Origin: Dehalococcoidia bacterium
GTDB taxonomy: Bacteria > Chloroflexota > Dehalococcoidia > SM23-28-2 > RBG-16-64-32
Assembly (NCBI GenBank): GCA_034408935.1
Contig: DAOUMV010000025.1
Span: 30,281 to 94,280 of the forward strand
Direction: 5' to 3'
DNA: 64,000 nt
Shown: positions 6,687-38,436 of the stretch, one piece after another
Numbering within the stretch: position 1 is the first letter of the stretch
Layout: every line of letters begins with the position of its first letter
The notes under the pieces: generated by a model
Seen by the model: the letters and a program-made list of their open reading frames with translations, nothing else
Database searches by the model: none
Told to the model about the DNA's origin: nothing
Position numbers and translations under genes: made by a program

Positions 6687-6725
6687 CGATACGTTGTCAG
6701 CCGCCCAGCCGCCATCCTATCTGGG
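6687..6725 (-). repeat. Copy 3 (diverged) of a promoter/leader repeat
   Basis: CGATACGTTGTCAGCCGCCCAGCCGCCATCCTATCTGGG matches the 10225/11463 repeat at 32 of 39 positions by manual alignment; lies just upstream of the GNAT start. Confidence 0.7.
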
Positions 6726-6782
6726 GAACTCGCCCAATGTCTAGCGGAAGCCGGCCGCTCTCGCTCCTCCGGCAAGAGAGCG

Positions 6783-7853: not shown

Positions 7854-7867
7854 CGGCGGCTCTAGTT

Positions 7868-8206
7868 CTACCCACCTCTACTCAACGTCGCGCGAAAGCT
7901 GTCGGCCGAGATCTGAGCGACTTCCCCCAGGTACCTCTCGCCCTCTTCCAGACAACGCGTGACGCGAGCTGAACTGGTACTAATGTGTAGGATCTCAGCC
8001 ACTCGTCCCGCGACAACCAACTGCGGTCGGCCATCAGCCAGTGTCAAGGAGACGCGCTCCCCCACCGTTGGTGGCTCGGCTGCCCGTCCGGCAACTGCCA
8101 CTTCGTCGGGGCACCCTGCAGGAGGTCTCCCCGCTGCTTCGGTCGCCACCGGCGACTTGCGGACCGGCTGCGTGGACGCACGCCACCTTTTACTCTTCAC
8201 TCCCAT
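7868..8206 (-). CDS. Small hypothetical protein, predicted beta-rich (HIRAN-like?)
   Basis: AGGAGG upstream of the ATG; 14 bp gap to the DUF4417-like gene; alternating hydrophobic strands and two Cys (CPD, RCL..G..Y.G.V). Confidence 0.55.
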   Translation of the reverse strand: MGVKSKRWRASTQPVRKSPVATEAAGRPPAGCPDEVAVAGRAAEPPTVGERVSLTLADGRPQLVVAGRVAEILHISTSSARVTRCLEEGERYLGEVAQISADSFRATLSRGG

Positions 8207-8286
8207 TCTGGTTTCTTCCTCCTGAACGACTTGACAGTCAGGAGGATGTTCGCACCATCCCTGAGTTCAGCCGCGTTCGCTCCGGG

Positions 8287-8313
8287 TTAGCACTCCATCC
8301 TCTCGACTGCTAA
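8287..8313. promoter_or_regulatory. CIRCE element (HrcA operator)
   Basis: TTAGCACTC-catcctctc(N9)-GACTGCTAA; 17/18 match to TTAGCACTC-N9-GAGTGCTAA. Confidence 0.88.
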
Positions 8314-8329
8314 CCTATCTGCTGGCTGC

Positions 8330-8358
8330 ATTCTAGAACGGATGTGCGCGCATGTCAA
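8330..8358 (-). promoter_or_regulatory. sigma70-type promoter upstream of the CIRCE
   Basis: Minus strand TTGACA (8358-8353), 17 nt spacer, TAGAAT (8335-8330). Confidence 0.85.
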
Positions 8359-8439
8359 CCATCCCGCTGCCACCTCCCCATTCCACCTCTGCCCCCGTTC
8401 GCGCTACACTTGAGGCGCTCCCGTACCTTAATACCTGCT

Positions 8440-8664
8440 TTCCCTCCCCCTGGTGGGGTGGGGCCAAGTCTGAATAGAGTTAGGAGCCTGTCCGCCTCAG
8501 GCGGAGGTGGGTGGGCGAGTCAGATAACTCGGGGTGGGGTGGCCGCATTCTAAGGCGATGCCTTGGCGCCTCTCCGACTCAGACGGATGTCGAGGGCTGA
8601 GCGTGTCGTAGGGGCAACCTTCAGCCTGCCCGCCCCCTGTCACTCCTCCGGGCCGTTCCCCTAC
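8440..8664. repeat. Cluster of REP-like palindromic elements
   Basis: CCCTCCCCCTGGTGGGG; CCTGTCCGCC-TCA-GGCGGA (8487-8505); degenerate GTAGGGGC...CCCCTAC doublet (8608-8664). Confidence 0.55.
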
Positions 8665-10213: not shown

Positions 10214-10224
10214 CCGTGCCCCGT

Positions 10225-10272
10225 TCTGCTCCGATACCTTGTCAGGCGCCTTGCCGCCATGCTAGCGGGGCG
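10225..10272 (-). repeat. Copy 1 of a 48-bp promoter/leader repeat
   Basis: TCTGCTCCGATACCTTGTCAGGCGCCTTGCCGCCATGCTAGCGGGGCG; 47/48 identical to 11463-11510. Confidence 0.9.
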
Positions 10273-10296: not shown

Positions 10297-11451
10297 CTAG
10301 GTGGCCGCTGCCTCAGCAGGCCGAGGCGGCGCCGGCCGTTCCTTCATCCCGAACAGGAACCGCACCACGCCCACGCGCTTCACTAACAGCTCGTAGAGCC
10401 CTAGCGTCGCCAGGAGCGAAAAGAGGAGCACCAGCGTGTACTCCGCTGGCACCCCTATTCCCCACTTCAGCACGTAGAAGCCGATCACGACGATCACCGT
10501 TTGATGCAGGATGTAGAAGGGGTAGGCGGCCTCGTTCGCGTAGCGCAGCGCGCGGTTGCTCACGCTCAGGAACTGCCGGCCGTAGCCGAGGATGGCGACG
10601 ATCCACAGCCAGCGGTCGAGCTGGTACAGGAACGTAACGCCGATCGCTTGCGGCGTGTAGTCCCCGCCGAAGTCGACATCCAACGCCCAAACGGCGTTCA
10701 GGGGCACTGCCGCCATGATCCCGAGCATCACGGCCGCGCCCTTGTGCCGGTCGATCGCCTCCTCGAATCGCTTGTCCGCAACAACGATGTACCCGAAGAC
10801 GAAGAACAGGAAGTAGCGGAAGGGGTTCGGTTCGACATCGCCTCCCAGGTATTCGGCGGCGAGCAGCGGCACGGCGAACAGGAAGATCGCACCGGGGTGT
10901 CGGCAGAGGCCGGCTGTTCGCGACAGAAACCGCGATCCGGATCCCCTCCGAAGGTAGAGCAGCAGCGCCAACCCCACGATCGAGAACACGAACAGGTAGA
11001 GGATGAACCACAGATGTGCCGGCGTGAACGTCCCCTTGTAGCCCTCGATGTCGCTCCAGTCGCTGAAGAAGTCAGCCCAGAAGCGGAGGTATGACTCGTC
11101 GTAGTGGAATTTCGACATACGTGCCATGAACCCCTGCGGCGGTATCACCACCAGCACGCCGAATACCAGCGGGATTAGCAGCCGCTTGAACCGCTCCGTC
11201 GCGTACTGTCCTGCCGTGCGGAAGCCGAGCGCGAACCACGACGCCGCTCCCGCCACCACGAACAGAAGCGGCATGTGCCAGGGCTCCACGAACTGGACGA
11301 AGTGCGAGAGCGGCCAGCTCAGCGCCTCGCTCTTCACGTAGAACGGCTCCGCCACGTTCGGCTCATCGATGTTGAACAGCCGCGCCGAGTGGAACGGCAC
11401 GAGGAGGAGGACCGCGAGTATGCGGATCCAATCGATGTCATGTCGCCTCAT
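10297..11451 (-). CDS. Membrane acyltransferase family 3 (OpgC/MdoC-like)
   Basis: RRHDIDWIRILAVLLLVPFH, WHMPLLFVVAG, HLWFILYLF, AYPFYILHQ. Confidence 0.88.
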   Translation of the reverse strand: MRRHDIDWIRILAVLLLVPFHSARLFNIDEPNVAEPFYVKSEALSWPLSHFVQFVEPWHMPLLFVVAGAASWFALGFRTAGQYATERFKRLLIPLVFGVLVVIPPQGFMARMSKFHYDESYLRFWADFFSDWSDIEGYKGTFTPAHLWFILYLFVFSIVGLALLLYLRRGSGSRFLSRTAGLCRHPGAIFLFAVPLLAAEYLGGDVEPNPFRYFLFFVFGYIVVADKRFEEAIDRHKGAAVMLGIMAAVPLNAVWALDVDFGGDYTPQAIGVTFLYQLDRWLWIVAILGYGRQFLSVSNRALRYANEAAYPFYILHQTVIVVIGFYVLKWGIGVPAEYTLVLLFSLLATLGLYELLVKRVGVVRFLFGMKERPAPPRPAEAAAT

Positions 11452-11462
11452 GCGTGTGCCGC

Positions 11463-11510
11463 TCTGCTCCGATACCTTGTCAGGCGCCTTGCCGTCATGC
11501 TAGCGGGGCG
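11463..11510 (-). repeat. Copy 2 of the 48-bp promoter/leader repeat
   Basis: 47/48 identical to 10225-10272; TAGCAT (-10-like) and GGAG on the minus strand. Confidence 0.9.
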
Positions 11511-19750: not shown

Positions 19751-21595
19751 CTATTCGACGGTGACCGTCTTGGCGAGGTTGCGCGGTTGGTCGACGTCGC
19801 AGCCGCGCCGCACGGCGATGTGGTAGGCGAAAATCTGAAGGGGGATAGCGGTGGAGATGGGCGACAGCAGAGACGACGCCTCCGGCACTCGGATGACATG
19901 GTCCGCCTTCTCCGCCAGCTGATCGTCTCCCTCTGAGCCCAGGGCGATGACCGTGCCCTCCCGCGCCTTCACCTGCTCGATGTTGCTCATCATCTTCTCG
20001 TACAGTTCATCCTTGGGGGCAATGGCGATGACCGGCATCTCCGGGTCTATCAGGGCGATCGGCCCGTGCTTCATCTCCCCGGCCGGGTAGCCTTCGGCGT
20101 GGATGTAGCTGACCTCCTTCAGCTTGAGAGCGCCTTCCATCGCTATGGGGAACTGGATACCGCGACCCAGGTAGAGGAAGTTGTTGTAGCGGAAGAACTG
20201 ATTGGCTAGCCGCTCGAACTCCTTTTCCCGCTTGGTGATCTCGCCGGCCAGGTAGGGCAGCCGTGCCAGCGGCTGCAGCAGCCCTCCCATCCGTTCGCGG
20301 TCGATCACGCCCCGAATCTGGCCCAGATAGCAGGCGAGTAGGTACAGCGCCGTCACCGAAGCGGTGAACGTCTTCGTGCTGCAGACGCCGATCTCCAGGC
20401 CGCAGCGAGTGTACACCACGCCGTCGGCAGCGCGGGTGGCCTGGCTGCCCACCACGTTGCAGATGGTGACTTGGGACGCCCCTTTCCGCCGCGCCTCTTC
20501 CATCGCCGCCAGGGTGTCCACCGTCTCTCCCGACTGCCCTACCGAGACCACCAGCGTGTCGGGCCCCATGATAGGGCCTCGATAGCGGTACTCGGAGGCG
20601 TTGTCCACCTCCGCCGGCAACCCGGCGATGCGCTCCATGTAGTGCCGGCCGATCATCGCAGCGTGGAGGCTCGTCCCCATGGCCACGAGGACCACCCGTC
20701 GCACCTGTGACAGTTGCTGCTTGCTCAGGGGGATATCCTCCAGCTCCACTACTGGCGAATCGAACTGGGCGCGGCCGCGGATCGTATTCAGGATCGACTC
20801 AGGCTGCTCCATGATCTCCTTGAGCATGAAGTGCTTGTAGGTACCCTTGGCCGCCGAGATCGGGTCGTAAGGGACCCCTTGCGGCTGCTTGTCCAAGGGC
20901 TGGCCGTCCCCGCTCCAGTAGGACACGCCAGTGGCGGTGACGCGCGCCACCTCTCGGTCGTCCAGGAACGCCACCCGGCGGGTGTGGGGGAGCAGGGCGG
21001 GGAGGTCGCTGGCCAGGAAGTTCTCGCCCCCGCCGCAGCCGACGACCACGCCGCCGGCGTTGCCCACGCGCGCCGCCACCAGCGTGCCCGGCTCCGAGCG
21101 GCTCATGGCCACGATGGCGTGCGCCCCTCGCAGGCGGGCGATCGTCTTTCCCAGGGCCCCCACCAGTTCCTCGTCCTCGCCGAGGTAGTGCTCTAGGAGA
21201 TGGGGGATCACCTCAGTGTCCGTCTCCGAGGCGAAGGTGTGCCCGGCGGCCACCAGCTCCGTCTTCAGATCCAGGTAATTCTCCACGATGCCGTTGTGGA
21301 TCACCACCACGTCACCTGTGCAGTCCGCGTGGGGGTGGGCGTTGACGTCGTTGGGCTTTCCATGGGTGGCCCAGCGTGTGTGGCCGATGCCTTCCTGCCC
21401 GCTGGGCCAGCGGCCGGCGACGGAGGCGGCTAGGCTCTCCAGCTTGCCCACTCGCTTATGGATCGACAGGTCGCCCTTCGTCTCCAGGATGGCGATGCCT
21501 GCGCTGTCGTAGCCGCGGTACTCTAGCCGTTTCAGCCCATCGATGAGGATGGGGCCTGCGGGCCGCGACCCCACGTATCCCATGATGCCGCACAT
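19751..21595 (-). CDS. glmS: Glutamine--fructose-6-phosphate aminotransferase
   Basis: MCGIMGY, RLEYRGYDSAG, GHTRWATHG, EGALKLKE, PRNLAKTVTVE. Confidence 0.98.
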   Translation of the reverse strand: MCGIMGYVGSRPAGPILIDGLKRLEYRGYDSAGIAILETKGDLSIHKRVGKLESLAASVAGRWPSGQEGIGHTRWATHGKPNDVNAHPHADCTGDVVVIHNGIVENYLDLKTELVAAGHTFASETDTEVIPHLLEHYLGEDEELVGALGKTIARLRGAHAIVAMSRSEPGTLVAARVGNAGGVVVGCGGGENFLASDLPALLPHTRRVAFLDDREVARVTATGVSYWSGDGQPLDKQPQGVPYDPISAAKGTYKHFMLKEIMEQPESILNTIRGRAQFDSPVVELEDIPLSKQQLSQVRRVVLVAMGTSLHAAMIGRHYMERIAGLPAEVDNASEYRYRGPIMGPDTLVVSVGQSGETVDTLAAMEEARRKGASQVTICNVVGSQATRAADGVVYTRCGLEIGVCSTKTFTASVTALYLLACYLGQIRGVIDRERMGGLLQPLARLPYLAGEITKREKEFERLANQFFRYNNFLYLGRGIQFPIAMEGALKLKEVSYIHAEGYPAGEMKHGPIALIDPEMPVIAIAPKDELYEKMMSNIEQVKAREGTVIALGSEGDDQLAEKADHVIRVPEASSLLSPISTAIPLQIFAYHIAVRRGCDVDQPRNLAKTVTVE

Positions 21596-21673
21596 AGATG
21601 AAGTCCCTTGCTGCTGGCCGTTCTTTCACTGTAAGTAACGTCTCCCGAGGTTCTGAGTTATGCCGCCTCGGGA

Positions 21674-22546
21674 TCAGTTAGCGCTGGTCGTACTTGCCAG
21701 CTCCTGGGCGATCTCCTGGACGCGGCGGACCACTGCCTCCACCGCGGACTCCGGCGTTGAGGCGCCCGCTGTGACGCCAACCCGCTGGCAGTCCTGGAGC
21801 CACTCCGTCTCCAGTTCCTCCGCCGACTCCACCTGGTGGGCGGTCGTGCCCTCCTCCCGGCAGACTGCCAGCAGGTGTCTGGTGTTAGCGCTGCTTCGGC
21901 CGCCGACCACCAGCATCACGTCCACTTCCTGGGCCAGCTCCCGAGCCGCTGCCTGGTGACTCGACGTAACGTTGCACAGTGTGTTGATGACTCGCAGTTC
22001 GCTGATGTCGCTTACGCGGTTCTGTATCAGCTTGGAGACGAAGAGAGCGAACTGCTCCGGGGTCTGCGTGGTCTGCGATATAACGGCCAGACGGGTGGGG
22101 AGGTCGTCCGGGATGTCGTCATCGTCCGCCAGGGCCAGGGCGTTTCCCCCGGCCCAGGCCAGTACGCCTCTGACCTCGCGGTGGTTGGGGTCGCCGAAGA
22201 CGACCACTGTGAAGCCAGCATCGGCCATCTTCTTGGCCCATCGCTGGGAACGAGTGACGATTGGACAGGTGGCATCGACCACTTCCGAACTCCTCGCCCG
22301 TGCCTCCTCCAGTGTCTGGGGGCCTACACCGTGGGCGGTGATGGCCACCGGACCCCCTGCGCCGTCCAGGGGTTCACTGCTGACGCACACGCCCTTGCTC
22401 TCAAGATCACGTACGACCTGCGGGTTGTGTACGATCGGCCCCAGGCTTATGATCTCCCCGTTCTCCGCTGCCGCTTTCTCCATGATGTCGATCGCGCGGC
22501 GTACGCCCCAGCAGAAGCCCATATCCCTCGCCAGCAGTATCTCCAT
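21674..22546 (-). CDS. ispH: 4-hydroxy-3-methylbut-2-enyl diphosphate reductase
   Basis: GFCWGVRRA, IVHN, DATCP, NTLC, VGGRSSANT, GVTAGASTP; start reassigned to MEILLA. Confidence 0.95.
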   Translation of the reverse strand: MEILLARDMGFCWGVRRAIDIMEKAAAENGEIISLGPIVHNPQVVRDLESKGVCVSSEPLDGAGGPVAITAHGVGPQTLEEARARSSEVVDATCPIVTRSQRWAKKMADAGFTVVVFGDPNHREVRGVLAWAGGNALALADDDDIPDDLPTRLAVISQTTQTPEQFALFVSKLIQNRVSDISELRVINTLCNVTSSHQAAARELAQEVDVMLVVGGRSSANTRHLLAVCREEGTTAHQVESAEELETEWLQDCQRVGVTAGASTPESAVEAVVRRVQEIAQELASTTSAN

Positions 22547-22548
22547 AC

Positions 22549-23238
22549 CTACCTCGCTCCACCTTTCGTCTCCAGCGCCTGCGGCTGCCCGGCGGCGTAC
22601 ACGCCGCGGTATCGTTCCGGCAGCAGCTCGGCTATCCGCCTCATGATGAGGTCGGTGCCATGCTCCACCGCCTCTTTGGTAAGCCGTTGCGGCTTTGGCA
22701 GGTAAAACGGCTCGCCGAATACTACGTGCACCGATGTCCAGGGCGGGAAGAATGCACGCGGCAGCTTGACCCCCTCCGTGCCCCATATCGCCACGGGCAT
22801 GACCGGCGTGTTGGCGCGCATGGCCAGCAGCGCCGTGCCGGGCTCGCCCCGCCCCAGTCCGCTCTCGCCGGTGCGGGTGCCCTCCGGGAACATCCCCAGC
22901 ACCAGACCTCGCTGGAGCGTTTCCTTGGATCGCCTCAACGCCCGCAGGTCGCCCTCGAAGCGCCGCACCGGGATGCATCCGAACAAGTGGTACAGGAGCC
23001 CGAACACCGGAATATCGAACAGCTCTTGCTTGCCCATCCAGACGACGCGTCGGGGCATGACCACGGTGAGGATCGGTGGATCCGCCAAGTTCAGGTGGTT
23101 GCTGGCCAGGATTAGCGCCCCTTTCCGGGGGATGCGTTCCCGTCCCTTAACGTCGCGGCGGGTGACCAGCAAGATCAGCGCCGACGCCCAGCTTCTGACG
23201 TTGATCCAGTAGAACACCGCGTGGAACAGGTTCCTCAC
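22549..23238 (-). CDS. plsC: 1-acyl-sn-glycerol-3-phosphate acyltransferase
   Basis: NHLNLAD (HX4D) and FPEGTR motifs. Confidence 0.9.
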   Translation of the reverse strand: MRNLFHAVFYWINVRSWASALILLVTRRDVKGRERIPRKGALILASNHLNLADPPILTVVMPRRVVWMGKQELFDIPVFGLLYHLFGCIPVRRFEGDLRALRRSKETLQRGLVLGMFPEGTRTGESGLGRGEPGTALLAMRANTPVMPVAIWGTEGVKLPRAFFPPWTSVHVVFGEPFYLPKPQRLTKEAVEHGTDLIMRRIAELLPERYRGVYAAGQPQALETKGGAR

Positions 23239-23975
23239 GCTGAGCCCTCCACCAGCTCCAGCACCCGCTGCACGACCTCCTCTAGCGTCAGTCCATCCGT
23301 ATCGATGACGATGGCCTCCTCTGCCGGCCGGAGCGGCGATACTGAGCGCTCCGAGTCGATCCGGTCCCGCCGCCGCAGGTCCCGCAGCACCGCCTCCTCC
23401 GTCAGGTCCATGCCCAGCGCCGACAGCTCAGCGAACCGTCGGCTTGCCCTCTCCTCCACGGACGCGTCCAGGTACACCTTCAGGTCCGCCTGCGGGAGAA
23501 CCACAGTGCCGATGTCGCGACCGGCCATTACCACGGGGTTCCTTCCCGCCAGCTCTCGCTGCACCTTCAGCAGCGCTTCCCGCACCCCCGCCACCCGAGA
23601 GACCAGCGAGACCGCCGCCTCCACCCCCGGCTGGCGCAGGTTGCGCGTCACGTCCTCCCCGTCGACGAAGATCGTGCACGGCTCGATGCTGTCCGAGGTG
23701 GGAGGGCCGATGTCTATGCTGATGGAGGCGGCCAACTCGCTGAGGGCGTCCTCGTCGCTGAGGTCTTCGCCGCGGCGCAGCGCCGCCCACGTCATCGCCC
23801 GATAAATAGCGCCCGTGTCCAGAAACGGGTATCCAAGGTGGCAGCCCGTCTGGCGCCCGACGGTGGTCTTGCCCGCCGCCGCTGGGCCGTCTATGGCGAT
23901 GACCCGCGGGACTCTCGGATTGCGCCGCGAGGCCGTTGCCTGCCTTGATCCGGCTGCGGCTGCCCCATCACTCAT
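23235..23975 (-). CDS. cmk: Cytidylate kinase
   Basis: IAIDGPAAAGKTT, LDTGAIYRA, GRDIGTVV, RDRIDSER. Confidence 0.95.
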   Translation of the reverse strand: MSDGAAAAGSRQATASRRNPRVPRVIAIDGPAAAGKTTVGRQTGCHLGYPFLDTGAIYRAMTWAALRRGEDLSDEDALSELAASISIDIGPPTSDSIEPCTIFVDGEDVTRNLRQPGVEAAVSLVSRVAGVREALLKVQRELAGRNPVVMAGRDIGTVVLPQADLKVYLDASVEERASRRFAELSALGMDLTEEAVLRDLRRRDRIDSERSVSPLRPAEEAIVIDTDGLTLEEVVQRVLELVEGSA

Positions 23976-24031
23976 CGATATCGATTATAGGTGACGACTG
24001 TTTCGCCCAGCAAGGCGAGCCCTCCACCAGG
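23973..24031 (+). repeat. Junction repeat R, copy D
   Basis: CATCGATATCGATTATAGGTGAC...TTTCGCCCAGCAAGGCGAGCCCTCCACCAGG; shares blocks with copies at 24679, 25558 and 26862. Confidence 0.85.
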
Positions 24032-24055
24032 TCAGGCGGCTACAGGCGGCCGAGG

Positions 24056-24079
24056 CCGCCGCGATTGTGCGCCTGGGCT
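24056..24079 (-). repeat. Promoter module P, partial copy (-10 half, no -35)
   Basis: CCGCCGCGATTGTGCGCCTGGGCT; 23/24 identical to 24600-24623. Confidence 0.8.
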
Positions 24080-24092
24080 GGGCGTAGGGGCC

Positions 24093-24575
24093 TCAGAGGC
24101 AGGTGCCGACTTGCAACGGGCTTTCCCAGAGACAGACATTCACCTCAATCCATCGGCAGACTTCACCTGGCGGGCAGCCAATATGTGCCTCGTCGCAGTG
24201 CACCCACCAGTGGCCTTTCTCCCACGTCGCCGTGCATGACGAGGGGTGTACGACCCAGAGCCCAGCATACGGAAACGTCAGCATGCCGTTCCGGAGCTCG
24301 CCTCTTTCGAGTGCCTTCACAACCAAGGTCACGACTTCCGCTGTGGTAAGGGTTGGAGGCGTCGGCTCTGGTGACGGGGTCGGTGTCGGTGACGCTTCAG
24401 GGGTTGCCGTGGAGCGAGGGCCTTGGGCGGCTTCGCTGTCCCCCATGCCATCGTCCCCGCCAGTGGCGATGACCACGGTGAGTGTCACGGCCAGCGCTAT
24501 GACAACGGCCACGACGCCGAGCAACGGCCCCTTCAGGTTCCAGGGCAGGTTCCAGACTGCTTTGAGCCAGCCCAC
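24093..24575 (-). CDS. Membrane-anchored hypothetical protein (TM helix, Pro/Thr linker, 6-Cys domain)
   Basis: GAGGTAGG RBS and GTG start; TM LLGVVAVVIALAVTLTVVIA; TPTPSPEPTP; Cys/Trp-rich C-terminus. Confidence 0.7.
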   Translation of the reverse strand: MGWLKAVWNLPWNLKGPLLGVVAVVIALAVTLTVVIATGGDDGMGDSEAAQGPRSTATPEASPTPTPSPEPTPPTLTTAEVVTLVVKALERGELRNGMLTFPYAGLWVVHPSSCTATWEKGHWWVHCDEAHIGCPPGEVCRWIEVNVCLWESPLQVGTCL

Positions 24576-24599
24576 GTTGTCCTACCTCGCTTCCCCTTC

Positions 24600-24636
24600 C
24601 CGCCGCGATTGTGCTCCTGGGCTCGGTGGGTGTCAA
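24600..24636 (-). promoter_or_regulatory. Promoter module P (TTGACA-N17-CACAAT)
   Basis: Minus strand TTGACA 24636-24631, 17 nt, CACAAT 24613-24608, upstream of the 24575 start. Confidence 0.75.
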
Positions 24637-24678
24637 CGGGAGCATCTATCACCGCACAGCGCTGAGGCTGGGACAGTA

Positions 24679-24742
24679 CATCGATATCGATTACTCGTTA
24701 CGGCCCTTTCGCCCGGCAAGGTGAGCCCTCCACCAGGCGTGG
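24679..24742 (+). repeat. Junction repeat R, copy C
   Basis: CATCGATATCGATTA (15 nt identical to 23973-23987), then TTTCGCCCGGCAAGGTGAGCCCTCCACCAGGCGTGG. Confidence 0.85.
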
Positions 24743-24752
24743 ATAGGCCTCG

Positions 24753-24789
24753 TTGACGCCCGTCCCGGCCAGGCGCACAATCACGGTGG
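24753..24789 (+). promoter_or_regulatory. Promoter module P (TTGACG-N17-CACAAT)
   Basis: TTGACG 24753-24758, 17 nt, CACAAT 24776-24781, upstream of the 24818 start. Confidence 0.75.
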
Positions 24790-24817
24790 GTGGGTTGGAA
24801 GGTACGAAGGAGACACG

Positions 24818-25453
24818 ATGAGGATTCTTGCGGTTGTCGCCATCGCGGTTCCCGTTCTGTTGGCTTTCGCAGTCGCCTGTGGGGACGATAACAAGGGGGT
24901 ACAGGTGTTTCCCAGCCCCGCGGGCGAGTCTGAAGGCGAGGCAGACGAAGCGGATGGGGTGGAGGACGTAGGCGAAGCGGGAGAGGAAGGCGCGGATGAG
25001 GTGGAGGCCACCTCGACTCCGGAGTCCACGCCTGAGCCCACCGTCACGGCGGAGGCCACGTCAACCCCGGAAGCGACGCCCGCAGGAGAGGAAGCCTGCC
25101 CGGATGCAGACGGAGACGACGTGTGTGACGACGATGACCTGTGTCCCGACACCGCTGACGGGAGCGTGGTGGATGACGTGGGCTGCTCCGATGCTCAGGT
25201 GGACCAGGACAACGACGGCATCTGCGACCCGGCCGCGGCGAGTGATGGCCCAGGCGACTGCGATCTAGTCGACGACAACTGCCCGCTCGCGCCCAACCCC
25301 GACCAGGACGATTTCGACGGCGACCTCGAAGGCGACGAGTGTGACGACGACGACGACAACGATGGCTTCACCGATGCCGAAGAGATAGACGCTGGCTCGG
25401 ACCCCCTCGATCCGGCCAGCTTTCCCCCAGTGGGCTGGGGGCCCGGTGCTTGA
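24818..25453 (+). CDS. Lipoprotein with an acidic Pro/Thr linker and thrombospondin type-3 repeats
   Basis: AAGGAG RBS; signal peptide ending AVA-C (lipobox); DADGDDVCDDDDLCP and DNCPLAPNPDQDDFDGD repeats. Confidence 0.82.
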   Translation: MRILAVVAIAVPVLLAFAVACGDDNKGVQVFPSPAGESEGEADEADGVEDVGEAGEEGADEVEATSTPESTPEPTVTAEATSTPEATPAGEEACPDADGDDVCDDDDLCPDTADGSVVDDVGCSDAQVDQDNDGICDPAAASDGPGDCDLVDDNCPLAPNPDQDDFDGDLEGDECDDDDDNDGFTDAEEIDAGSDPLDPASFPPVGWGPGA

Positions 25454-25557
25454 GGGAAGACGCCAACACCGGTAGCAGCATCGACGACGTGGACGGCGAT
25501 GGCCTCACCGACGGCGTCGACCCAGGCTGTCCCTACGACCGCCTCGCGGATTCGTCG

Positions 25558-25628
25558 TTTCGCCCACCGAGGCGAGCCCTCCACCAGGCGTGGCCGGCGA
25601 GCGTGCCCAGGGCCACCCCCGGCACGCC
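25558..25628 (+). repeat. Junction repeat R, copy B
   Basis: 25573-25628 is a 56-nt exact copy of 26891-26946 (3' end of the 26857-28767 gene). Confidence 0.92.
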
Positions 25629-25659
25629 TGCTGCCAATCGCAGTATATCCACTCCATGA

Positions 25660-25845
25660 CTAGCTTCCCACTGCCTTCTCGTGAAGGTGCTCATGGTTGT
25701 GGGGGGCGTCGCTTCGGTGAGTGTGCTCATGCTTGTGTCGGTAGGGGTAGGGCTTGACATCGGCGTGGTGGTGGGTGTGAGGGTAAGGATCAAGGTCAGT
25801 TCCAATGTCGCCATTTTCCTTTGCCCGCTCTTGCTCAGCACTCAT
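25660..25845 (-). CDS. His-rich miniprotein (61 aa, putative metal-binding)
   Basis: AAAGGAG RBS then ATG; 12 His in HxHxHxH arrays (HTHHH, HKHEHTH, HNHEHLH). Confidence 0.7.
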   Translation of the reverse strand: MSAEQERAKENGDIGTDLDPYPHTHHHADVKPYPYRHKHEHTHRSDAPHNHEHLHEKAVGS

Positions 25846-25966
25846 AGTGTCTCCTTTCGTCAGCGCCGTGGGCCCCACCTATGCCACGATAGAATTTACT
25901 CCGAATCGCCACCCTGTCAATAGGGAAAGATACGAAACTGCCGCCGTCGAAACGGGTCGAGCACCG

Positions 25967-26001
25967 TTGACACCCGCTCGGCCCAGGCCCACAATCGCGG
26001 C
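25967..26001 (+). promoter_or_regulatory. Promoter module P (TTGACA-N17-CACAAT), antisense to the HEPN gene
   Basis: TTGACA 25967-25972, 17 nt, CACAAT 25990-25995; spacer homologous to the other P copies. Confidence 0.7.
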
Positions 26002-26015
26002 TGTTGCCAGGGCTG

Positions 26016-26723
26016 TCAGTCGGTAAGCTGCTTGGCGACGCTATTGAGGATGTTGTTGCTGGCCTCTAGCAGCGTCCTTGTGAGGCTGATCATGTCCTCT
26101 TTGCGCCGGGGATACCGATTCCGGTTCTTCTGCTTGAAGTCAATATCCATCTCGTGGATCACTTGATTTCGGCGGTGGAACACCTCCTGCAAGTCATCCT
26201 TCATAACACCGAGGCTGCTGGGACTCAGCCCGAGGTACTCAACAACATTGTAAAGCTGGTCGACCGATTGCAGACTTTTGGCGGTGAGATCCTCCACGAG
26301 CAGCTCAACCATGCCAGCGCGCGTACTCTCAGCGAGCAGTAGTTTGATGAGAAGTTTGGAGCTGATTGTGCGTGGCGCAGTGTCGTCGCCCTCTGAATCA
26401 CCACCTGAGCGCCGGAGGTGACGCAAACCCAACCTCTCAATTCGCTTTCTGATCTCTGGCAACCTCTCCACCATCTCAGGGAGTGCATCTTGTACGAGCT
26501 GCTTGGTCATCGAGTCGATGCCCGCCCCGGCGAACACAACCATTGCGCGGAGCAGATCCTGCTCCTCGTCGCGGGGAGTACCCTTTGCTCTTCGCGCTGT
26601 GCGCACCTGCACGAACGTGTCTAGAAGTGACTCTGCAGTGTCGTGGGCGTATTTCAGGATCAGGTAGGAGTTCTCCGTGGCTCCGCACTTCGGATCATCT
26701 GGTGGCACGAATCCCTTGGGCAT
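26016..26723 (-). CDS. Stand-alone HEPN-domain protein (putative RNase)
   Basis: R-N-Q-V-I-H (RX4H) in FHRRNQVIHEMD; helical; upstream DLLRAMVVFAGAGID segment; more A/T-rich codons. Confidence 0.72.
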   Translation of the reverse strand: MPKGFVPPDDPKCGATENSYLILKYAHDTAESLLDTFVQVRTARRAKGTPRDEEQDLLRAMVVFAGAGIDSMTKQLVQDALPEMVERLPEIRKRIERLGLRHLRRSGGDSEGDDTAPRTISSKLLIKLLLAESTRAGMVELLVEDLTAKSLQSVDQLYNVVEYLGLSPSSLGVMKDDLQEVFHRRNQVIHEMDIDFKQKNRNRYPRRKEDMISLTRTLLEASNNILNSVAKQLTD

Positions 26724-26856
26724 AACGACCCCCTTTCGGTAGCTCGGGTCGATTATACGCTAGTCCCGCTCACCGTCGGCGTCTCAGGCCCCTCCGCATC
26801 TGTGCAAGCGAGTCGTCCCCGGTTTGTGCCTCCCGTCGGAGGTACCTCATCGCTAT

Positions 26857-28767
26857 TCATGATAGGTGACCCGGCTTTCGCCCAGTAAGACGAGCCCTCC
26901 ACCAGGCGTGGCCGGCGAGCGTGCCCAGGGCCACCCCCGGCACGCCGAACGCCAGCAGCAGCGGCCACAGGGGGCGGCCGCCCTCAGCGTCGGAAGCGGC
27001 TTCCGGTGCTGATTCGTGCCTGACGTTGGCCAGCGTCGTCGGTTTCCTCGAGGCGCCCAGGGCCGCTGCCTCGACCTGCCGTGCTTCAGGGGACCAGCCT
27101 GCTGCGGCCGATATGCTTCTTCCTGCAGAGGGCCGCTCTGTCTGCTCGCTGCCGCCGGCGCTTGTCGCTGTCTGCGTGTCCATCACGGTCGGCGTGTCGG
27201 TCGCTGCCGGTGCCCCCGTCTTGTCGAATCGCACGTCGTCGAAGTAGACGGCCGCCGACGCCGCCGATGTCGGCCGCATCAGCAGACGGACCTTCGCCGA
27301 GCGCGCCTCCAGCGGCGCCTGTACGGGGTCCGTGTCAAGCGTGACGAAGTCCGCCGAGTCCTCCGCCAGTGCCGGGGAGTCCGCCACGGCGATCTGGCTA
27401 CCGCTGCCGTCGGCGCTCTCGTACCACGAGACGCGCAGAAGCGCCTCCCGTACCCCCGGGTCATTCTTCAGGGCTGCCGCCTGCAGGCGGTAGAAGGCTC
27501 CTCCCTGTATGCTCACCGTCTGATAGATCCACTTGGTGGAGGCCGTGCGGCTGACCAGCGCCGCCGACCGTCCTCCTTCTGCATGGAATGCGTTGCTGGC
27601 GCTCATCTCGCCGCCTATCTTGCGCCAGCCATACGGCGTGTCGTCCTCTCGCACGTCCTCGAACCCACCGTTGACCAGCGAGGGGAAAACCCTGGGCTCC
27701 GCTGCCTCGGTCGTGGGGACGGGTTCTGGGGGAGATGGGTCAGGGGAGGCCGCTTGCCCCGGTGTAGACGCCGGCGAGGGTGTCAAGACGGCTGTGGGTG
27801 TGGGCGCGTCCACCTGGCCGAACTGCACGGCGTCGAAGTAGACCACCGCGGATGCTGCCGATGCGGGCCTGAGCAGCAGACGGACCTTGGCTGAACCCGC
27901 CTGCGGTGGGGCCTGCACCGGGCCCGTGTCCAGCATCACGAACGCTGGCGAGCCCTCCACCAGCGCCGGGGAGTCCCCTGTGCCGATCTGGCTTCCGCTG
28001 CCATCGGCACTCTCGTACCAGGAGACGCGCAGCAGCGCCTCTCGCACCGCAGGGTCGTTCTTCAGTGCTGCCGCCCGCAGGCGGTAGAAAGCTCCTCCCT
28101 GCACGCTTACCGTCTGATAGATCCACTTGGTGGAGGCCGTGCGGCTGACCAGCGCTGCCGACCGTCCTCCTTCCGCATGGAATGCGTTGCTGGCGCTCAT
28201 CTCGCCGCCTATCTTGCGCCAGCCATACGGCGTGCCGTCCTCGCGCACGTCCTCGAACCCGCCGTTGACCAGCGAGGGGAAGACCGTCGGTTCCATCGGC
28301 GTGGCAGTGGGACTCGGCGGCTTGGTGGGGCAGGCGATGGGCGTCGCGTTCGGCTCAGCGGAGAACTGGAGGGTCGGGCTATCGACTGAGACGGCGCCGG
28401 TGTCCCCCTTGACCAGCACGCCGTAGCGGGCAGAGCGTGCCGCGCAGGGGGCGTCGGTGGTCAGGGAAAGGCACTGCTTCCCTACCCGCCAGACGTCTGC
28501 ATGCGCGTCATCCTGGTAGAGCGTCGCCCCGAACCCACCCGGCTGCTCATACCAGGCCACGCTCAATGATATCGACATGACGCCCGTCCCGGTGACGGTG
28601 AGGCAGCCGTCGAGGCGGTAGGTCTGGCCGGGGGTGACTTCTTGAACGTACTGCTCGACCCAGCCCAACTGGTTCGTGTCGGGTGTGGCCTCACCGCGGA
28701 CGGCCGCGAGGCCGCCGGTCAGGAGGGCTGCCCCAAGCCCGGCCAGGAGCACGATAGTGCGCTGCAA
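26857..28767 (-). CDS. Secreted/anchored surface protein with two tandem carbohydrate-binding (CBM4/9-like) domains and a C-terminal TM helix
   Basis: Signal-like N-terminus; two LVNGGFED...W...YFDxVxF domains; PT linkers; C-terminal PLWPLLLAFGVPGVALGTLAGHAWWRAR. Confidence 0.75.
   Translation of the reverse strand: MQRTIVLLAGLGAALLTGGLAAVRGEATPDTNQLGWVEQYVQEVTPGQTYRLDGCLTVTGTGVMSISLSVAWYEQPGGFGATLYQDDAHADVWRVGKQCLSLTTDAPCAARSARYGVLVKGDTGAVSVDSPTLQFSAEPNATPIACPTKPPSPTATPMEPTVFPSLVNGGFEDVREDGTPYGWRKIGGEMSASNAFHAEGGRSAALVSRTASTKWIYQTVSVQGGAFYRLRAAALKNDPAVREALLRVSWYESADGSGSQIGTGDSPALVEGSPAFVMLDTGPVQAPPQAGSAKVRLLLRPASAASAVVYFDAVQFGQVDAPTPTAVLTPSPASTPGQAASPDPSPPEPVPTTEAAEPRVFPSLVNGGFEDVREDDTPYGWRKIGGEMSASNAFHAEGGRSAALVSRTASTKWIYQTVSIQGGAFYRLQAAALKNDPGVREALLRVSWYESADGSGSQIAVADSPALAEDSADFVTLDTDPVQAPLEARSAKVRLLMRPTSAASAAVYFDDVRFDKTGAPAATDTPTVMDTQTATSAGGSEQTERPSAGRSISAAAGWSPEARQVEAAALGASRKPTTLANVRHESAPEAASDAEGGRPLWPLLLAFGVPGVALGTLAGHAWWRARLTGRKPGHLS
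26862..26946 (+). repeat. Junction repeat R, copy A (3' end of the surface-protein gene)
   Basis: ATAGGTGACCCGGCTTTCGCCCAGTAAGACGAGCCCTCCACCAGGCGTGG...GGCACGCC. Confidence 0.9.
27229..28284. repeat. Intragenic tandem duplication, period 594 bp
   Basis: About 27229-27690 repeats at about 27823-28284 with long identical nucleotide runs (offset confirmed at two anchors). Confidence 0.9.
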
Positions 28768-28854
28768 GCCAGCGTCCGCGGGTAGCCGGTGAGGTGGCCA
28801 CGCCTATTCTCAGGCGGCCCGTGGGTTTTGTCAACGATGTGTGAAGACAGAGGG

Positions 28855-29769
28855 CTAGATCAGCCGTTTGAGTCTCGGGTTGTCGGTGACGCCGGGGATG
28901 CGCCCCCGCTTGGCGATCGGTTTCCCCTCCACCTCCTTCAGGTCGGCCGTGAAGTCGTTGGGCTGGGCGGAGGTGATGTAGCTGCCAACCCCGAAGCCGT
29001 CTACCGACGCGCCTGTCGCCAGGAACTGGCGGATGCGCTCCGGCGTCACGCCCCCACGCTCGCCGGGAGTGTCCAGACGCACGCCCTGCAACCTCTCCCC
29101 CAGCGTCTCGGCCACCCGCAGCGCCTCCTGGGGCTCGTCCAGGAACGTGTCCACCAGGACGATGCGAGGCACCTCCGGCTCCACGTGCTTGTCGAAGGCG
29201 ACCGCCGCCTTCACCGTGTCCCCGAAGCAGATGATCATGGCGTGAGGCATCGTGCCCGAGGGCTCCTTTCCGGCCATGGCGGCCCCCGGCGTCGTAGAGG
29301 CGCTCGCGCAGCCGCCGACGATGGCCGCGTAGTCCATGTACGGCGCTACCAGCGGATGGACGTGGCGGGCACCGAAGCTCACCACGGGGACGCCCTCCGC
29401 CGCCTCCACGCACTCCTGCGCCGCCTGCGCCCAGCCGCTCTCCTGGGCTAAGATGCCCAAGATCGCCGTCTCGTAGACGGCATAGGATAGGTACTGGGCC
29501 TTGACGCGCAGCACCACCTCGTGAGCGGAGATGGGCTCGCCATCCTCCAGCCCCCAGACCTCGGCGCCCTGGGGCAGCGCCTTCCCCAGCAGGGCCCCCA
29601 CCTCGCGCATGCCGCATATGAGCCCATCGCGGTGGGGGAATATCTCCATCGCCGCCGTGGGGTTGACACCCTCGGCCTCCATCACTCGATGGGCGCGCAG
29701 GAAGTAGATGTCAGCGGTGTCACCCGCGAGGACATGCGGGGCCGGTTGGAACAGCTCCTCGCTCACCAA
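28855..29769 (-). CDS. pncB: Nicotinate phosphoribosyltransferase, apparently with an internal in-frame deletion
   Basis: DIYFLR, SFGARHVHP, GTMPHA, LVDTF, GVRLDTP, DGFGVG, AKRGR; the usual SGG loop between RLDTP and DGFGVG is absent. Confidence 0.85.
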   Translation of the reverse strand: MVSEELFQPAPHVLAGDTADIYFLRAHRVMEAEGVNPTAAMEIFPHRDGLICGMREVGALLGKALPQGAEVWGLEDGEPISAHEVVLRVKAQYLSYAVYETAILGILAQESGWAQAAQECVEAAEGVPVVSFGARHVHPLVAPYMDYAAIVGGCASASTTPGAAMAGKEPSGTMPHAMIICFGDTVKAAVAFDKHVEPEVPRIVLVDTFLDEPQEALRVAETLGERLQGVRLDTPGERGGVTPERIRQFLATGASVDGFGVGSYITSAQPNDFTADLKEVEGKPIAKRGRIPGVTDNPRLKRLI

Positions 29770-37524: not shown

Positions 37525-38436
37525 CTATTGCTTCTCTCTTGCCTTCAGCCGTACTTGATTATAGAATGCTCGCTCATATGCGCGCCTCTGCTGCTCCTCC
37601 GTCACGTGCGTGTATATCTGCGTCGTGTTGGCGCTGGCGTGTCCCAGCAGCTCCTGCACCACCCGCAGCTCGGCGCCTCCGTCCAGCAGGTGGGTAGCGA
37701 AGGAGTGCCGCAGCAGGTGAGGAAACACCCGCTGGTCCAGGCCGGCCTTGAGCGCGTGGCTGCGCACGATCTTCTGGATGGAGCGGCCGGAGAGCCGCCG
37801 CCCGTCTCGGTTCACGAAGAGCGCCGTCTCCCCCGCCCGGCTGAGCTTGTGTCGACCCTCTCGCAGGTAGCGCCGCAGCGCCTCCGCCGCTGGCCGGCCG
37901 ATGACCACGACCCGTTCCTTGTTCCCCTTGCCACGCACGCGCACGAGCTGTTCGCGCAGATCTACCCCGGCGGCGTCCAGTGCCACCACCTCGGCCAGGC
38001 GTAGCCCCGCCGCGTACATCAGCTCCAGGATGGCGCGGTCGCGCAGCCCCTGGGGCGCATCGGAGTCGGCCACCTCGATGATCGCCGTGAGCTGCTCTTT
38101 CCCCAGAACCTCCGGCAGGCGCCGCTCTCGCTTGGGGCTGCTCACGCCAAGGAGAGGGTCGCGCTGCAGAATGCCCTCCCGCGTCAGGAAGCGGTAGAAG
38201 GTGTGGATGGTGCTCACCTTGCGTCCGACGCTGGCCGGTGCCGTCCCGATCTCCCGCAGGTGGGCCAGGTAGCGTCGGAACGCCTGCCGGTCGACCTCCA
38301 GAGGGCCGACATCCTCCTCGGCTTCCAGATAGCGCCCGAAGTCGCTCAGGTCGGCGCGATAGTTCCTGAGGGTGTAGGAGGAGAGGTTGCGCTCCGCTGT
38401 CAGGTAGCGGAGGTAGACCTCAATGAGCTCTTTCAT
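37525..38436 (-). CDS. xerC: Chromosomal tyrosine recombinase XerC/XerD
   Basis: [48 protein letters not shown]; dprA-topA-xer synteny. Confidence 0.88.

Follow-up and report, generated by a model that had tools for sequence, protein, structure and literature searches.

A small gene-exchange hotspot between a surface-protein gene and cmk in an uncultured Chloroflexota genome

Based on the analysis reported here, the site between a surface-protein gene and cmk in an uncultured Chloroflexota (Dehalococcoidia-like) genome is a genuine small gene-exchange hotspot. In the 64-kb stretch of DNA analysed (the window), three packets of foreign genes lie between these two genes, and each of the three cassettes is flanked by a partial copy of the junction that the cassettes split. 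We regard the hotspot as real because the site is empty or differently filled in related genomes. The units span 0.65-1.3 kb with one or two genes each, and their cargo is unremarkable: accessory genes whose products are surface, defence-type and metal-binding-type proteins.

Junction copies around each cassette

The genes and junction copies (R) at the site are as follows:

23235-23975, minus strand: cmk (cytidylate kinase; PF02224, E 7e-70), the essential, conserved gene on one side
23973-24031, minus: R copy D, the native junction adjoining cmk, which holds the putative cmk promoter
24093-24575, minus: cassette 1, gene for a 160-aa protein, Cys-rich in its C-terminal part and with a TM segment at the N terminus
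24679-24742, minus: R copy C, starting 5 nt before the core and reaching to the cmk ATG
24818-25535, plus: cassette 2, TSP3-repeat lipoprotein gene (PF18884, E 8e-8)
25533-25643, minus: R copy B, the core with 40 nt ahead of it and an alternative tail after it; its extent as a repeat is 25558-25643
25660-25878, minus: cassette 3a, small His-rich ORF of 72 aa with its own promoter at 25893-25920
26016-26723, minus: cassette 3b, 235-aa RiboL-PSP-type HEPN protein, with a TATAAT box upstream
26848-26961, minus: R copy A, in use as the 3' end of the surface gene and encoding ...AWWRARLTGRKPGHLS*
26857-28767, minus: surface-protein gene on the other side of the site, 636 aa, with two CBM_4_9/NTTRR-F1-like modules and a C-terminal TM anchor

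R is a direct copy of the junction between the 3' end of the surface gene and the start of cmk and was searched for with the pattern TTTCGCCC-N4-AG-N2-GAGCCCTCCACCAGG. This pattern has exactly four matches in the 64 kb (starting at 24001, 24707, 25558 and 26876, all on the plus strand) against 0 in 100 shuffles. The four direct copies bracketing three cassettes that the initial annotation had described are therefore borne out, and all of them lie in this region. That the repeats are real and confined to the region counts for recombination at junction copies.

Over 59 nt, identity to copy D is 85% for C and 81% for A. Copies A and B are 87% identical over 86 nt, and alignment confirms the 56-nt exact repeat noted earlier between the surface-gene end (A) and the copy at 25558 (B); beyond this stretch without mismatch, A and B differ at 4 of the next 15 or 16 positions. 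As also noted, C and D have in common CATCGATATCGATTA, including the cmk start codon (CAT on the plus strand), of which A has a diverged version, CATCGCTATTCATGA. In A, the surface-gene end leads into a diverged version of the -10 box, the spacer and ATGAG. Copy C would encode ...HAWWRAHLAGRKGRNE*, and the alternative tail of B reads ...AWWRARLGGRNDESARRS*. In A, B and C, the right part encodes a short basic tail closed by an in-frame stop, as if each of these copies had at some time terminated the surface gene, and copy B has the appearance of a fossil gene end. Within the 31 nt common to the four copies, all differences fall in an 8-nt stretch between the invariant blocks CCTGGTGGAGGGCTC and GGGCGAAA, and this central stretch is different in every pair of copies. 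The duplicated lengths at the three repeat-boundary pairs are about 59, 36 and 116 nt, and the left edges of the copies differ (0, 50 and 55 on the junction scale); at the cmk ATG, the ends of A and C are no more than 2 nt apart.

In the undivided junction, as four relatives show, roughly the last 15 codons of the surface gene and its stop overlap the putative promoter and the start codon of cmk. R is a copy of this overlap, and cmk is predicted to be leaderless. The putative promoter in copy D has a -35 box TTGCTG (24008-24013) and a -10 box TATAAT (23984-23989), with the ATG 8 nt downstream. The arrangement TATAAT-N7/8-start is kept in all relatives, and, as read from the alignment by eye, D and the undivided junction of the relative L082 agree at all but 2 of 59 positions. 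The -35 box is kept in four of five aligned cmk-proximal copies (L083 differs) and in L002, and is changed in the three other copies of the window (A, B and C). The small hairpin previously ascribed to each copy stands in part: B and D have an intact TCGCC-N6-GGCGA and A and C a version with one change, but single-stranded DNA folding of the copies does not exceed that of shuffles (z +0.1 to -2.2) and revealed no long hairpin common to them. The supposed variable loop of this hairpin was rejected, as it coincides with the codons R-L-A/T/G-G and the putative cmk -35 box.

Cassette genes and portable promoter modules

The cassettes hold the genes that had been listed for them, in mixed orientation, namely a Cys-rich anchored protein, a TSP3 lipoprotein, and a His-rich protein with the 235-aa HEPN-type protein. 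No known family was found for the 160-aa protein; its gene recurs together with its promoter and 17 nt in an unrelated context, contig L162, at 85% mean column identity over the whole alignment. The TSP3 ORF stops at 25453, and because the TSP3-like stretch goes on out of frame to about 25535, the gene is probably shortened relative to the intact 213-aa gene of the relative L177. The His-rich ORF, for which no family match was found, would have 61 aa with the ATG at 25845, which follows AAAGGAGA, as its start. The 235-aa protein on its own has no Pfam match; in an alignment of this protein with 19 homologues, 14 of the 20 sequences match PF18735 (HEPN_RiboL-PSP), and the motif R-N-x3-H is invariant (R185, N186, H190). 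Elsewhere, the homologues are encoded by solitary genes in varied contexts. The G+C content of the cassette 3b part of the region is 54-59% compared to 65-70% in the flanks; together with the 56-nt perfect match between A and B, this low G+C fits a recent event beside the surface gene.

No similarity is left between the cassettes except for a second repeat family, P, that the initial annotation had missed. P is a sigma-70-like promoter module of about 45 nt present in all three cassettes:

24032-24092, minus: P1, a module at 24056-24084 without its -35 half, plus a 5' UTR remnant, reading toward D and cmk
24599-24640, minus: P2, promoter module of the 160-aa gene, TTGACA-17-CACAAT
24749-24795, plus: P3, promoter module of the TSP3 gene, matching parts of two P copies of L177
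25960-26001, plus: P4, an orphan module reading antisense into the HEPN gene from its 3' end

By its score, P is a promoter of the sigma-70 type with a spacer of 17 nt, and it lies 30-110 nt ahead of gene starts. Contig L176 has 14 copies in 9 kb in a single orientation, also before called minus-strand genes (the copies at 3294 and 2837 precede 3411-3902 and 2936-3157, respectively), and has P-only units without genes. P with the TSP3 gene was found in at least five contexts. Thus, these occurrences, together with P and the 160-aa gene in L162, indicate that the modules are portable, and P ties the cassettes of the window to promoter-module arrays elsewhere. A near-identical promoter of about 45 nt ahead of unrelated genes in different genomes resembles reused or "mobile" promoters (PMC3575422); unlike such scattered reuse, the P copies of L176 point one way even before inverted genes and include gene-less units, which is more array-like.

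The initial annotation had also raised an integron-like system. In such a reading, R or P would act as an attC-type folded single-stranded site for an IntI-type integrase in trans, and the array would be CALIN-like. As in integron arrays and CALINs, where the integrase is sometimes far away, the units are small, mostly carry a single gene, are separated by a repeated element and have no integrase nearby; the P copies of L176 share one orientation regardless of gene orientation, and some units are empty. However, R, P, and P with its neighbouring motif fold no better than shuffles and are without paired inverted core sites, P scores as a promoter, the units of the window are in mixed orientation with their own promoters, and R merely copies the host junction. 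IntI, attI and Pc were not found among the window ORFs checked or, by eye, in the rest. Because neither an integrase nor an attC-like fold nor a uniform orientation was found, this reading is unsupported and close to refuted.

Empty and differently filled sites in relatives

The junction is undivided in four relatives, L082, L083, L001 and L002 (cmk amino acid identity to the window 89%, 82%, 80% and 66%, respectively), with the same neighbouring genes as far as the contigs reach, while in a fifth, L177 (91%), a different array occupies the site. The cmk orthologues flank the junction in all five, and surface-protein orthologues are present in L082, L083, L177 and L002. The comparison that had been proposed thus yielded both empty and differently filled sites, in keeping with a hotspot for insertions where every unit is bracketed by duplicated target sequence. 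The L177 array encodes a 187-aa lipoprotein, an FN3-like lipoprotein and TSP3, is without the HEPN/His cassette and the 160-aa gene, and has only the TSP3 cassette in common with the window.

Two presence/absence differences between the two arrays end inside repeats, which supports the earlier suggestion of repeat-mediated shuffling. The real surface-gene end of L177 (...AWWRARLAGRKGGPARRP*) is collinear with copy B of the window; in other words, the B-type tail is in use there. The stretch from P3 through TSP3 to B is collinear with P, TSP3 and the real gene end of L177 up to GGCACGCC, where B breaks off. As a consequence, the presence/absence difference for cassette 3 falls exactly between copies A and B. 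The window lacks the FN3 block of L177, and this difference ends between P copies: the left flank of P3 corresponds to the first P copy of L177 and its right part to the P copy adjoining TSP3, and P3 looks like a recombinant of the two copies flanking the FN3 block. Between C and D, the content differs while about 25 nt adjoining C are shared. The D copy of L177 extends about 20 nt beyond that of the window, and this cmk-proximal copy is changed at 3 of 15 core positions, with an intact -35 box and a -10 box reading TTATAAT.

These data bear on a scenario in which a single, rare founding insertion duplicated the junction once and unequal crossing-over between the two copies then multiplied the unit of R and cassette, after which P-module DNA replaced the contents and the R edges eroded. 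Ends of A and C within 2 nt at the cmk ATG are easily obtained from one copy, the differing left edges and the longer D of L177 look like erosion, and the content between C and D changed next to a shared stretch. We nevertheless consider this scenario improbable: the B tail is tied to TSP3 and is a real gene end in L177, which a new entry at the gene end fits better; the cassettes have no residual similarity apart from P; and a low-G+C, apparently recent cassette beside a 56-nt perfect repeat is left unexplained.

Independent assemblies bear on whether cassette 3 might be an assembly artefact, i.e. whether the chromosome is L177-like (gene end followed by TSP3) and the assembler threaded in HEPN and His genes from a separate molecule or another strain that shares the 56-nt repeat. 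Logan contig L181 (k=31), which carries cassette 3, stops inside the 56-nt repeat at both ends, and such a graph is compatible with integration of cassette 3 as well as with a circle alongside an L177-like chromosome. Yet the junctions of cassette 3 with the right part of A and the left part of B are present in two samples (L181 and L182), so some molecule has cassette 3 with junction sequence on both sides. Moreover, contig L081 independently reproduces D, cassette 1, C and TSP3 at 100% identity, the contig from which the window was taken is long (these proteins lie on a contig of 222,805 nt), and a circular form would itself favour the recombination model. We consider an artefact at cassette 3 very improbable.

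Routes of cassette entry and turnover

In Dehalococcoides, islands in tandem at ssrA have 20-bp repeats at their bounds, and 15 of 31 are without an integration module (PMC3146451). As in these islands and the ICE/IME/CIME tandems of streptococci (PMC5704250), direct repeats of a gene 3' end bound the units described here. Also as in accretion by ICEs, IMEs and CIMEs, the units are in tandem, some without integrase, the site is empty in relatives, and the newest unit is expected beside the gene. The window differs from such tandems in unit size (0.65-1.3 kb versus about 10 kb or more), in repeats of 36-116 nt and varying extent instead of a fixed short att core, in a target that is a protein-coding end overlapping the promoter of the next gene, and in that no integrase was found in the sequence examined and P marks end points of differences.

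Accretion by site-specific recombination would make R an att site, with a recombinase of the serine or tyrosine type, its gene lying elsewhere or on decayed elements, having integrated successive elements, each with its own gene-end copy like an attP; the remnants would be tiny integrase-less cis-mobilizable units. The gene 3'-end repeats around every unit, the empty site, the precedent in the same class (PMC3146451) and the position of the apparently newest cassette (PMC5704250) argue for it, as does the right part tied to each cassette, which provides an in-frame tail and stop. Moreover, one 31-nt stretch occurs in all duplications, and confinement of the differences to 8 nt between invariant blocks resembles a protein-binding site, which favours a site-specific enzyme. 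Against it, no integrase was found in the cassettes and, in line with the initial annotation, no recombinase was found among the proteins encoded in or adjoining the array. The only recombinase-family match among array proteins and ten further ORFs was a Xer-type tyrosine recombinase (37525-38436), the other ORFs being judged by eye, as were its neighbours, read as topA and dprA. The units are far smaller than known IMEs or CIMEs. In the cmk-proximal copy of L177, core positions changed while the promoter boxes were largely kept, i.e. conservation tracks promoter use and not att function. As a crossover region, the 8-nt centre, differing in all pairs, would block tyrosine-recombinase exchange among the present copies, and the difference between P copies requires a second mechanism in any case. 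Overall, we hold accretion of this kind to be less likely than recombination at junction copies.

Islands of the Tycheposon type in Prochlorococcus (bioRxiv 10.1101/2020.12.28.424599) are reportedly built at a fixed gene-end site with partial target repeats between cargo modules; they are said to carry their own recombinases and to target mostly tRNA genes. The site described here resembles them in build-up at a gene end with partial target repeats, and differs in that no such recombinase gene was seen in its array and the target is a protein-coding end. Many hotspots of horizontal transfer lack mobile-element genes, and their turnover is thought to occur by homologous recombination (PMC5635113). 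The site shares with them accessory genes between two conserved genes, without mobility genes and with content that varies among close relatives; however, crossovers in flanking core genes, as in that model, involve no target duplication, while here partial junction copies bracket every unit.

The best reading, which we put forward tentatively, is reciprocal recombination at junction copies, with the newest cassette beside the surface gene and repeat-mediated turnover. As to the enzyme, we lean slightly towards host homologous or short-homology recombination, acting on DNA of relatives, over a dedicated recombinase. Besides the confinement of the differences to 8 nt between invariant blocks, three points count against this reading. 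Shared homology of only 31-116 nt at 75-100% identity is a poor RecA substrate; with three distinct boundary pairs, homologous recombination alone leaves the first linkage between cassette and junction unexplained; and A, though the same as B in its left part, deviates from native D at 9 of 28 positions in its right part, which calls for either gene conversion or import of a junction copy.

In this model of junction recombination, the site would be a small flexible islet at a junction that is costly to split, where the end of the surface gene overlaps the putative promoter and the start codon of cmk. Self-contained modules of promoter and gene, most with the portable P, would have arrived one by one, each entering by a reciprocal (Campbell-type) crossover of the junction on the chromosome with a similar stretch carried by the incoming DNA. 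As a result, at each entry one copy would still end the surface gene while the other drives cmk or the next unit, and the cassette beside the surface gene would be the newest. The direct repeats R and P may then serve as crossover points for the loss, gain and exchange of cassettes between related genomes.

The duplicated junction between cmk and the surface-protein gene

The pattern TTTCGCCC-N4-AG-N2-GAGCCCTCCACCAGG has four matches in the 64-kb window and none in 100 shuffles, and all four matches, the copies of the repeat R, are in one orientation and inside the cmk/surface-gene region. A second repeat, the ~45-nt module P, also has four copies in the window, all confined to the same region.

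Features of the cmk/surface-gene region
23235-23975, minus strand, cmk (PF02224)
23973-24031, R copy D, next to cmk
24056-24084, minus strand, P1, -35 half lost, reads toward cmk
D-C interval, cassette 1, 160-aa TM/Cys-rich protein
24599-24640, minus strand, P2, precedes the 160-aa gene
24679-24742, R copy C
24749-24795, plus strand, P3, precedes the TSP3 gene
C-B interval, cassette 2, TSP3 lipoprotein, on the strand opposite to the cassette 1 gene
25558-25643, R copy B, with an alternative tail extending back to 25533
B-A interval, cassette 3, small His-rich ORF (own promoter) and the gene for a 235-aa protein
25960-26001, plus strand, P4, antisense into the HEPN (235-aa) gene
26848-26961, R copy A, the actual surface-gene end
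26857-28767, minus strand, 636-aa surface protein with CBM_4_9/NTTRR-F1-like modules and a C-terminal TM anchor

Re-examination of the window confirmed the R coordinates of the initial annotation and three of its further observations: 56 nt of exact identity between A and B, CATCGATATCGATTA as a shared sequence, and the short palindrome TCGCC-N6-GGCGA. In the gene sense, R codes for the anchor end (...AWWRARL-x-GR...), followed by a short basic tail and a stop. In four relatives with an undivided junction (L082, L083, L001 and L002), the R-equivalent sequence passes directly into cmk, with the stop TAA within CACCTATAATC and the cmk start 7-8 nt further on. On the cmk side, TATAAT leads into the start codon without an intervening Shine-Dalgarno sequence, and TTGCTG lies 18 nt upstream of TATAAT, inside the coding sequence. 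Because this arrangement is conserved, it reads as a predicted leaderless cmk promoter. Of the five aligned copies next to cmk, four have TTGCTG (window D, L082, L001 and L177, a relative with a different cassette set at the same site; L083 differs), as does L002, while the box is altered in the copies of the window away from cmk (TTACTG in A, TCGGTG in B and TTGCCG in C). In other words, what was initially described as the variable loop of a hairpin is a putative -35 box that also codes for R-L-A-G. The hairpin itself gained no structural support: folding of the R copies as single-stranded DNA gave z of +0.1 to -2.2 relative to shuffles with no common hairpin. Rfam gave no match at E <= 1 in 23000-29000.

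The stretch common to all four R copies is 31 nt long and has two invariant blocks around a central 8 nt that differ among the copies. On a junction scale from 0 (left end of B) to 116 (cmk ATG), the duplicated stretches cover ~55-116, 50-86 and 0-116, and they overlap solely in these 31 nt. Copies A and B are identical over 56 nt and then show four differences within the following 15 or 16 nt (Fisher p ~0.008). The right parts of A and C give a mixed signal when compared with the junctions of relatives, as the A spacer AATAGCG is like that of L001 while tails of the GRK type place A and C with the gene end of L177; this affinity is too short for choosing between import and divergence in place.

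Within the surface-protein gene, a 594-nt segment is duplicated in tandem (27200-28093; 79% identity), which gives two CBM-like modules. Orthologs of this gene are shorter (457 aa in L177, 488 aa in L082 and 444 aa in L083), which fits a single module, and one region of the L177 protein matches both window copies in BLAST.

Cassette genes and P promoter modules

The cassette genes are oriented -, +, -, -. Promoter-like sites precede the 160-aa, TSP3 and His-rich genes, and a TATAAT box seen by eye precedes the HEPN gene. The window TSP3 gene is probably truncated or a pseudogene: the L177 version, intact at 213 aa, can be aligned through the window stop, a ~23-nt stretch within 25400-25540 differs from the intact gene and holds that stop (25451-25453), and an additional TSP3-like repeat runs on out of frame. 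Among 20 aligned sequences of the 235-aa family (the window protein and 19 homologs), 14 match PF18735 (HEPN_RiboL-PSP) and all have an invariant R-N-x3-H (R185, N186 and H190); the window protein itself has no Pfam match at E <= 0.01. Homologs are solitary genes in varied surroundings, for instance beside a WYL regulator or in a region that also holds an integrase and a transposase, and their loci carry neither R nor P and are, therefore, uninformative on cassette boundaries. Searches of the cassette proteins with PADLOC and NCBIfam gave no convincing match.

The TSP3 gene (AAGGAGACACGATGAG, 24807-24822) and the His-rich ORF (AAGGAGACACTATGAG, 25841-25856) have nearly identical ribosome-binding sites and starts; the two genes are unrelated and their promoters differ. 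In the stretch 25533-25878, the His-rich ORF stops 17 nt short of copy B, and the adjacent frame runs on into the anchor that B encodes (...GVPGVALGTLAGHAWWRARL...). With a shift of one base, the His-rich protein would hypothetically gain a tail anchor.

P has the consensus CCGTTGACACCCGCCCAGCCCAGGCGCACAATCGCGGCGG, and three of the four window copies score as predicted sigma-70-type promoters (TTGACA/TTGACG-17-CACAAT). P was also found in L177 and in three other contigs (L180, L179 and L162), and it is most abundant in the 12.9-kb metagenome contig L176 (JGI 3300067986, Ga0617944_0003687), where 14 copies occur in ~9 kb against 0.34 expected. In the L176 array (270-8500), the modules are near-identical, ~45-60 nt long and on one strand throughout; they precede unrelated small genes and called minus-strand genes and also occur in gene-less units (86-134 nt). 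The array genes include three TSP3 paralogs and two paralogs with 126-nt internal repeats, and a companion motif, CCCCTACCGCAGCC...GGCGTAAC, recurs after genes. A further P array lies at 290-1900 of L180. The unit formed by P, the 160-aa gene and 17 nt recurs in L162 behind an unrelated gene (85% mean column identity), and P with TSP3 occurs in at least five contexts. Such units recur elsewhere, and the cassettes are, therefore, portable modules of promoter and gene. Eight matches in viral contigs to a P pattern with 16 specified bases were set aside as being, by our own estimate, about chance level for the size of the collection.

Another shared promoter or 5' UTR module may be represented by a 58-nt repeat (10215-10272 and 11453-11510, 93% identical; weaker copy at 6670-6727) directly upstream of the adjacent minus-strand genes 8675-10213 and 10297-11451. 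The segment 6073-8206, with a DUF4417 protein and unassigned ORFs, has a third-position G+C of 0.64-0.71 compared with ~0.85 elsewhere and may be another acquired patch. Tandem ~135-nt coding repeats at 51773-52647, within the lipoprotein gene 51547-52701, correspond to PD40/WD40-like beta-propeller repeats.

Empty and alternative alleles in relatives

The comparison of the locus across relatives proposed in the initial annotation revealed four empty sites, in L082 (cmk 89% identical at the amino acid level), L083 (82%), L001 (80%) and L002 (66%), and a different cassette array in L177 (GCA_034411955.1; also a Logan contig from SRR14802573), which is 87% identical in nucleotide sequence across glmS-ispH-plsC-cmk. 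Starting from cmk, the L177 array has an R copy, then a 187-aa lipoprotein, a degenerate R core fused to P, ~400 nt, P with an FN3-like lipoprotein, P with TSP3 and then the real surface-gene end. Thus, accessory content varies among the window, L177 and L082 between conserved syntenic flanks and with no mobility genes. These empty and alternative alleles support both an insertion hotspot with target duplication and repeat-mediated shuffling, as initially proposed.

Two presence/absence differences end within repeats. The cassette with the HEPN and His-rich genes is present in the window and absent from L177 exactly between A and B, and the difference in the FN3 block lies between P copies; by sequence comparison, window P3 resembles a recombinant between the two P copies of L177. 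In the C-D interval, the window has the 160-aa gene and L177 the 187-aa gene, with ~25 nt beside C common to both. Window P3-TSP3-B is collinear with P-TSP3-gene end in L177 as far as GGCACGCC, and the L177 tail ...GRKGGPARRP* is the counterpart of the B tail ...GRNDESARRS*; copy B is, therefore, a fossil gene end. The shared TSP3 junction may reflect descent or exchange. Because the window, L177 and L082 are mutually about equidistant (cmk identity 89-91%), the empty L082 site may be ancestral or may have been left by R x R deletion.

The perfect 56-nt A/B identity followed by divergence, together with the low G+C of cassette 3 (54-59% versus 65-70% in the flanks), suggests that this cassette, which adjoins the surface gene, was the latest arrival. 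Two Logan contigs (L181 and L182) reproduce cassette 3 with both junctions; L181 ends within the 56-nt repeat on each side, as any k=31 graph would, and its graph fits either an integrated cassette or a circle plus an L177-like chromosome. An assembly or circle artifact is, in our judgment, very unlikely for cassette 3. D, cassette 1, C and the TSP3 start were independently assembled, since Logan contig L081 (SRR14802572) reproduces 20083-25319 at 100% identity.

Possible mechanisms and significance

Because the surface-gene end overlaps the cmk promoter, an insertion could preserve both functions only by duplicating the junction zone, and selection alone can, therefore, explain that duplications are seen. 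Yet every cassette, the first and the later ones alike, is bracketed by R; selection is insufficient for this, which argues that R is involved each time. Automatic duplication of the target would follow most simply from reciprocal recombination between the chromosomal junction and a junction-like stretch on incoming DNA. Two observations would fit such a process: A and C each carry, on the right, a diverged yet complete junction copy reaching the cmk ATG, and B has on its right a different in-frame tail, which is in actual use as the gene end in L177. A transposase-type target duplication was ruled out because the duplications are 36-116 nt and unequal in length. That one founding insertion was followed by unequal crossing-over that multiplied the units seems improbable to us.

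As for the enzyme, we tentatively favor host recombination at junction copies with repeat-mediated turnover, to which we give a little under an even chance. No site-specific recombinase for R was found in the cassettes, the checked window ORFs, L177 or L176; the P x P difference requires no special site; the R core has decayed in the cmk-proximal copy of L177, while its promoter boxes are largely retained; and hotspots free of mobile genetic elements (MGEs) are known (PMC5635113). Accretion at R by a site-specific recombinase acting in trans is a serious contender that we consider rather unlikely. It would account for two invariant blocks around a variable 8 nt, for cassette-borne tails that resemble gene ends supplied by attP sites and for three different boundary pairs, and it has precedents in the CIME/accretion model (PMC5704250) and in the tandem ssrA islands of Dehalococcoides, in which the integration module is absent in 15 of 31 (PMC3146451).

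The search in and beside the array (array proteins and ten further window ORFs by Pfam, remaining ORFs by eye) yielded no recombinase there, and the sole recombinase-family match among the Pfam-checked window ORFs is an Xer-type gene (37525-38436). It adjoins ORFs that, as read by eye, we take to be topA and dprA. A dif/Xer role of R was rejected by inspection only, as a dif-like AT-rich center is absent and the Xer-like gene is in a housekeeping context.

An integron-type mechanism, part of the initial reading, is extremely unlikely. In integrons, IntI, attI and Pc stand at the array head (they are absent in CALINs), whereas none of them was found in or beside the window array. The attC sites of integrons and CALINs are imperfect inverted repeats that fold as single-stranded hairpins, and R and P lack such a fold (z of +1.8 and 0.0 for P, and -1.2 to +0.7 for P with its neighboring motif); the attC idea was dropped when folding of R, P and P with the companion motif gave structure that was neither significant nor shared. 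Moreover, integron cassettes are mostly promoterless and in one orientation, while those of the window are in mixed orientation and carry their own promoters.

Two known kinds of system come nearest: tandem accretion at the 3' end of a gene, and hotspots of horizontal gene transfer (HGT) that are free of MGEs. The locus shares with the former units bounded by direct repeats of the target gene 3' end (four R copies) and an unoccupied site in relatives, and with the latter variable content between conserved flanks without mobility genes. It differs from both in its very small units, in a repeat with a double role as gene end and promoter, in the varying extent of this repeat and in the accompanying P modules.

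We speculate, as an unlikely idea, that R and P are what is visible of a cassette-exchange system not yet described in Dehalococcoidia-like Chloroflexota. If so, P together with its companion motif would make up single-orientation arrays of small genes like that of L176, from which pieces would be moved into specific gene-end/promoter junctions by a trans-acting recombinase or a dedicated short-homology mechanism. Such a system would be integron-like in function, with a promoter-type repeat and without a folded attC or a linked integrase. Something new is most likely to be concealed in the P arrays, which may merit their own study as a means by which genes for surface and defense-type proteins would come with a promoter already attached.

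With repeats of 31-116 nt, cassettes of ~1 kb and, from sister samples, naturally occurring alleles of the empty, alternative and filled kinds, the locus is a small test case for which enzyme works at HGT hotspots without mobile-element genes. It offers a nucleotide-level view of how a compact genome may add genes where a gene end overlaps the promoter of the next gene: each surviving insertion would bring a spare copy of the junction, and the spare copies would become crossover points for later gain and loss.
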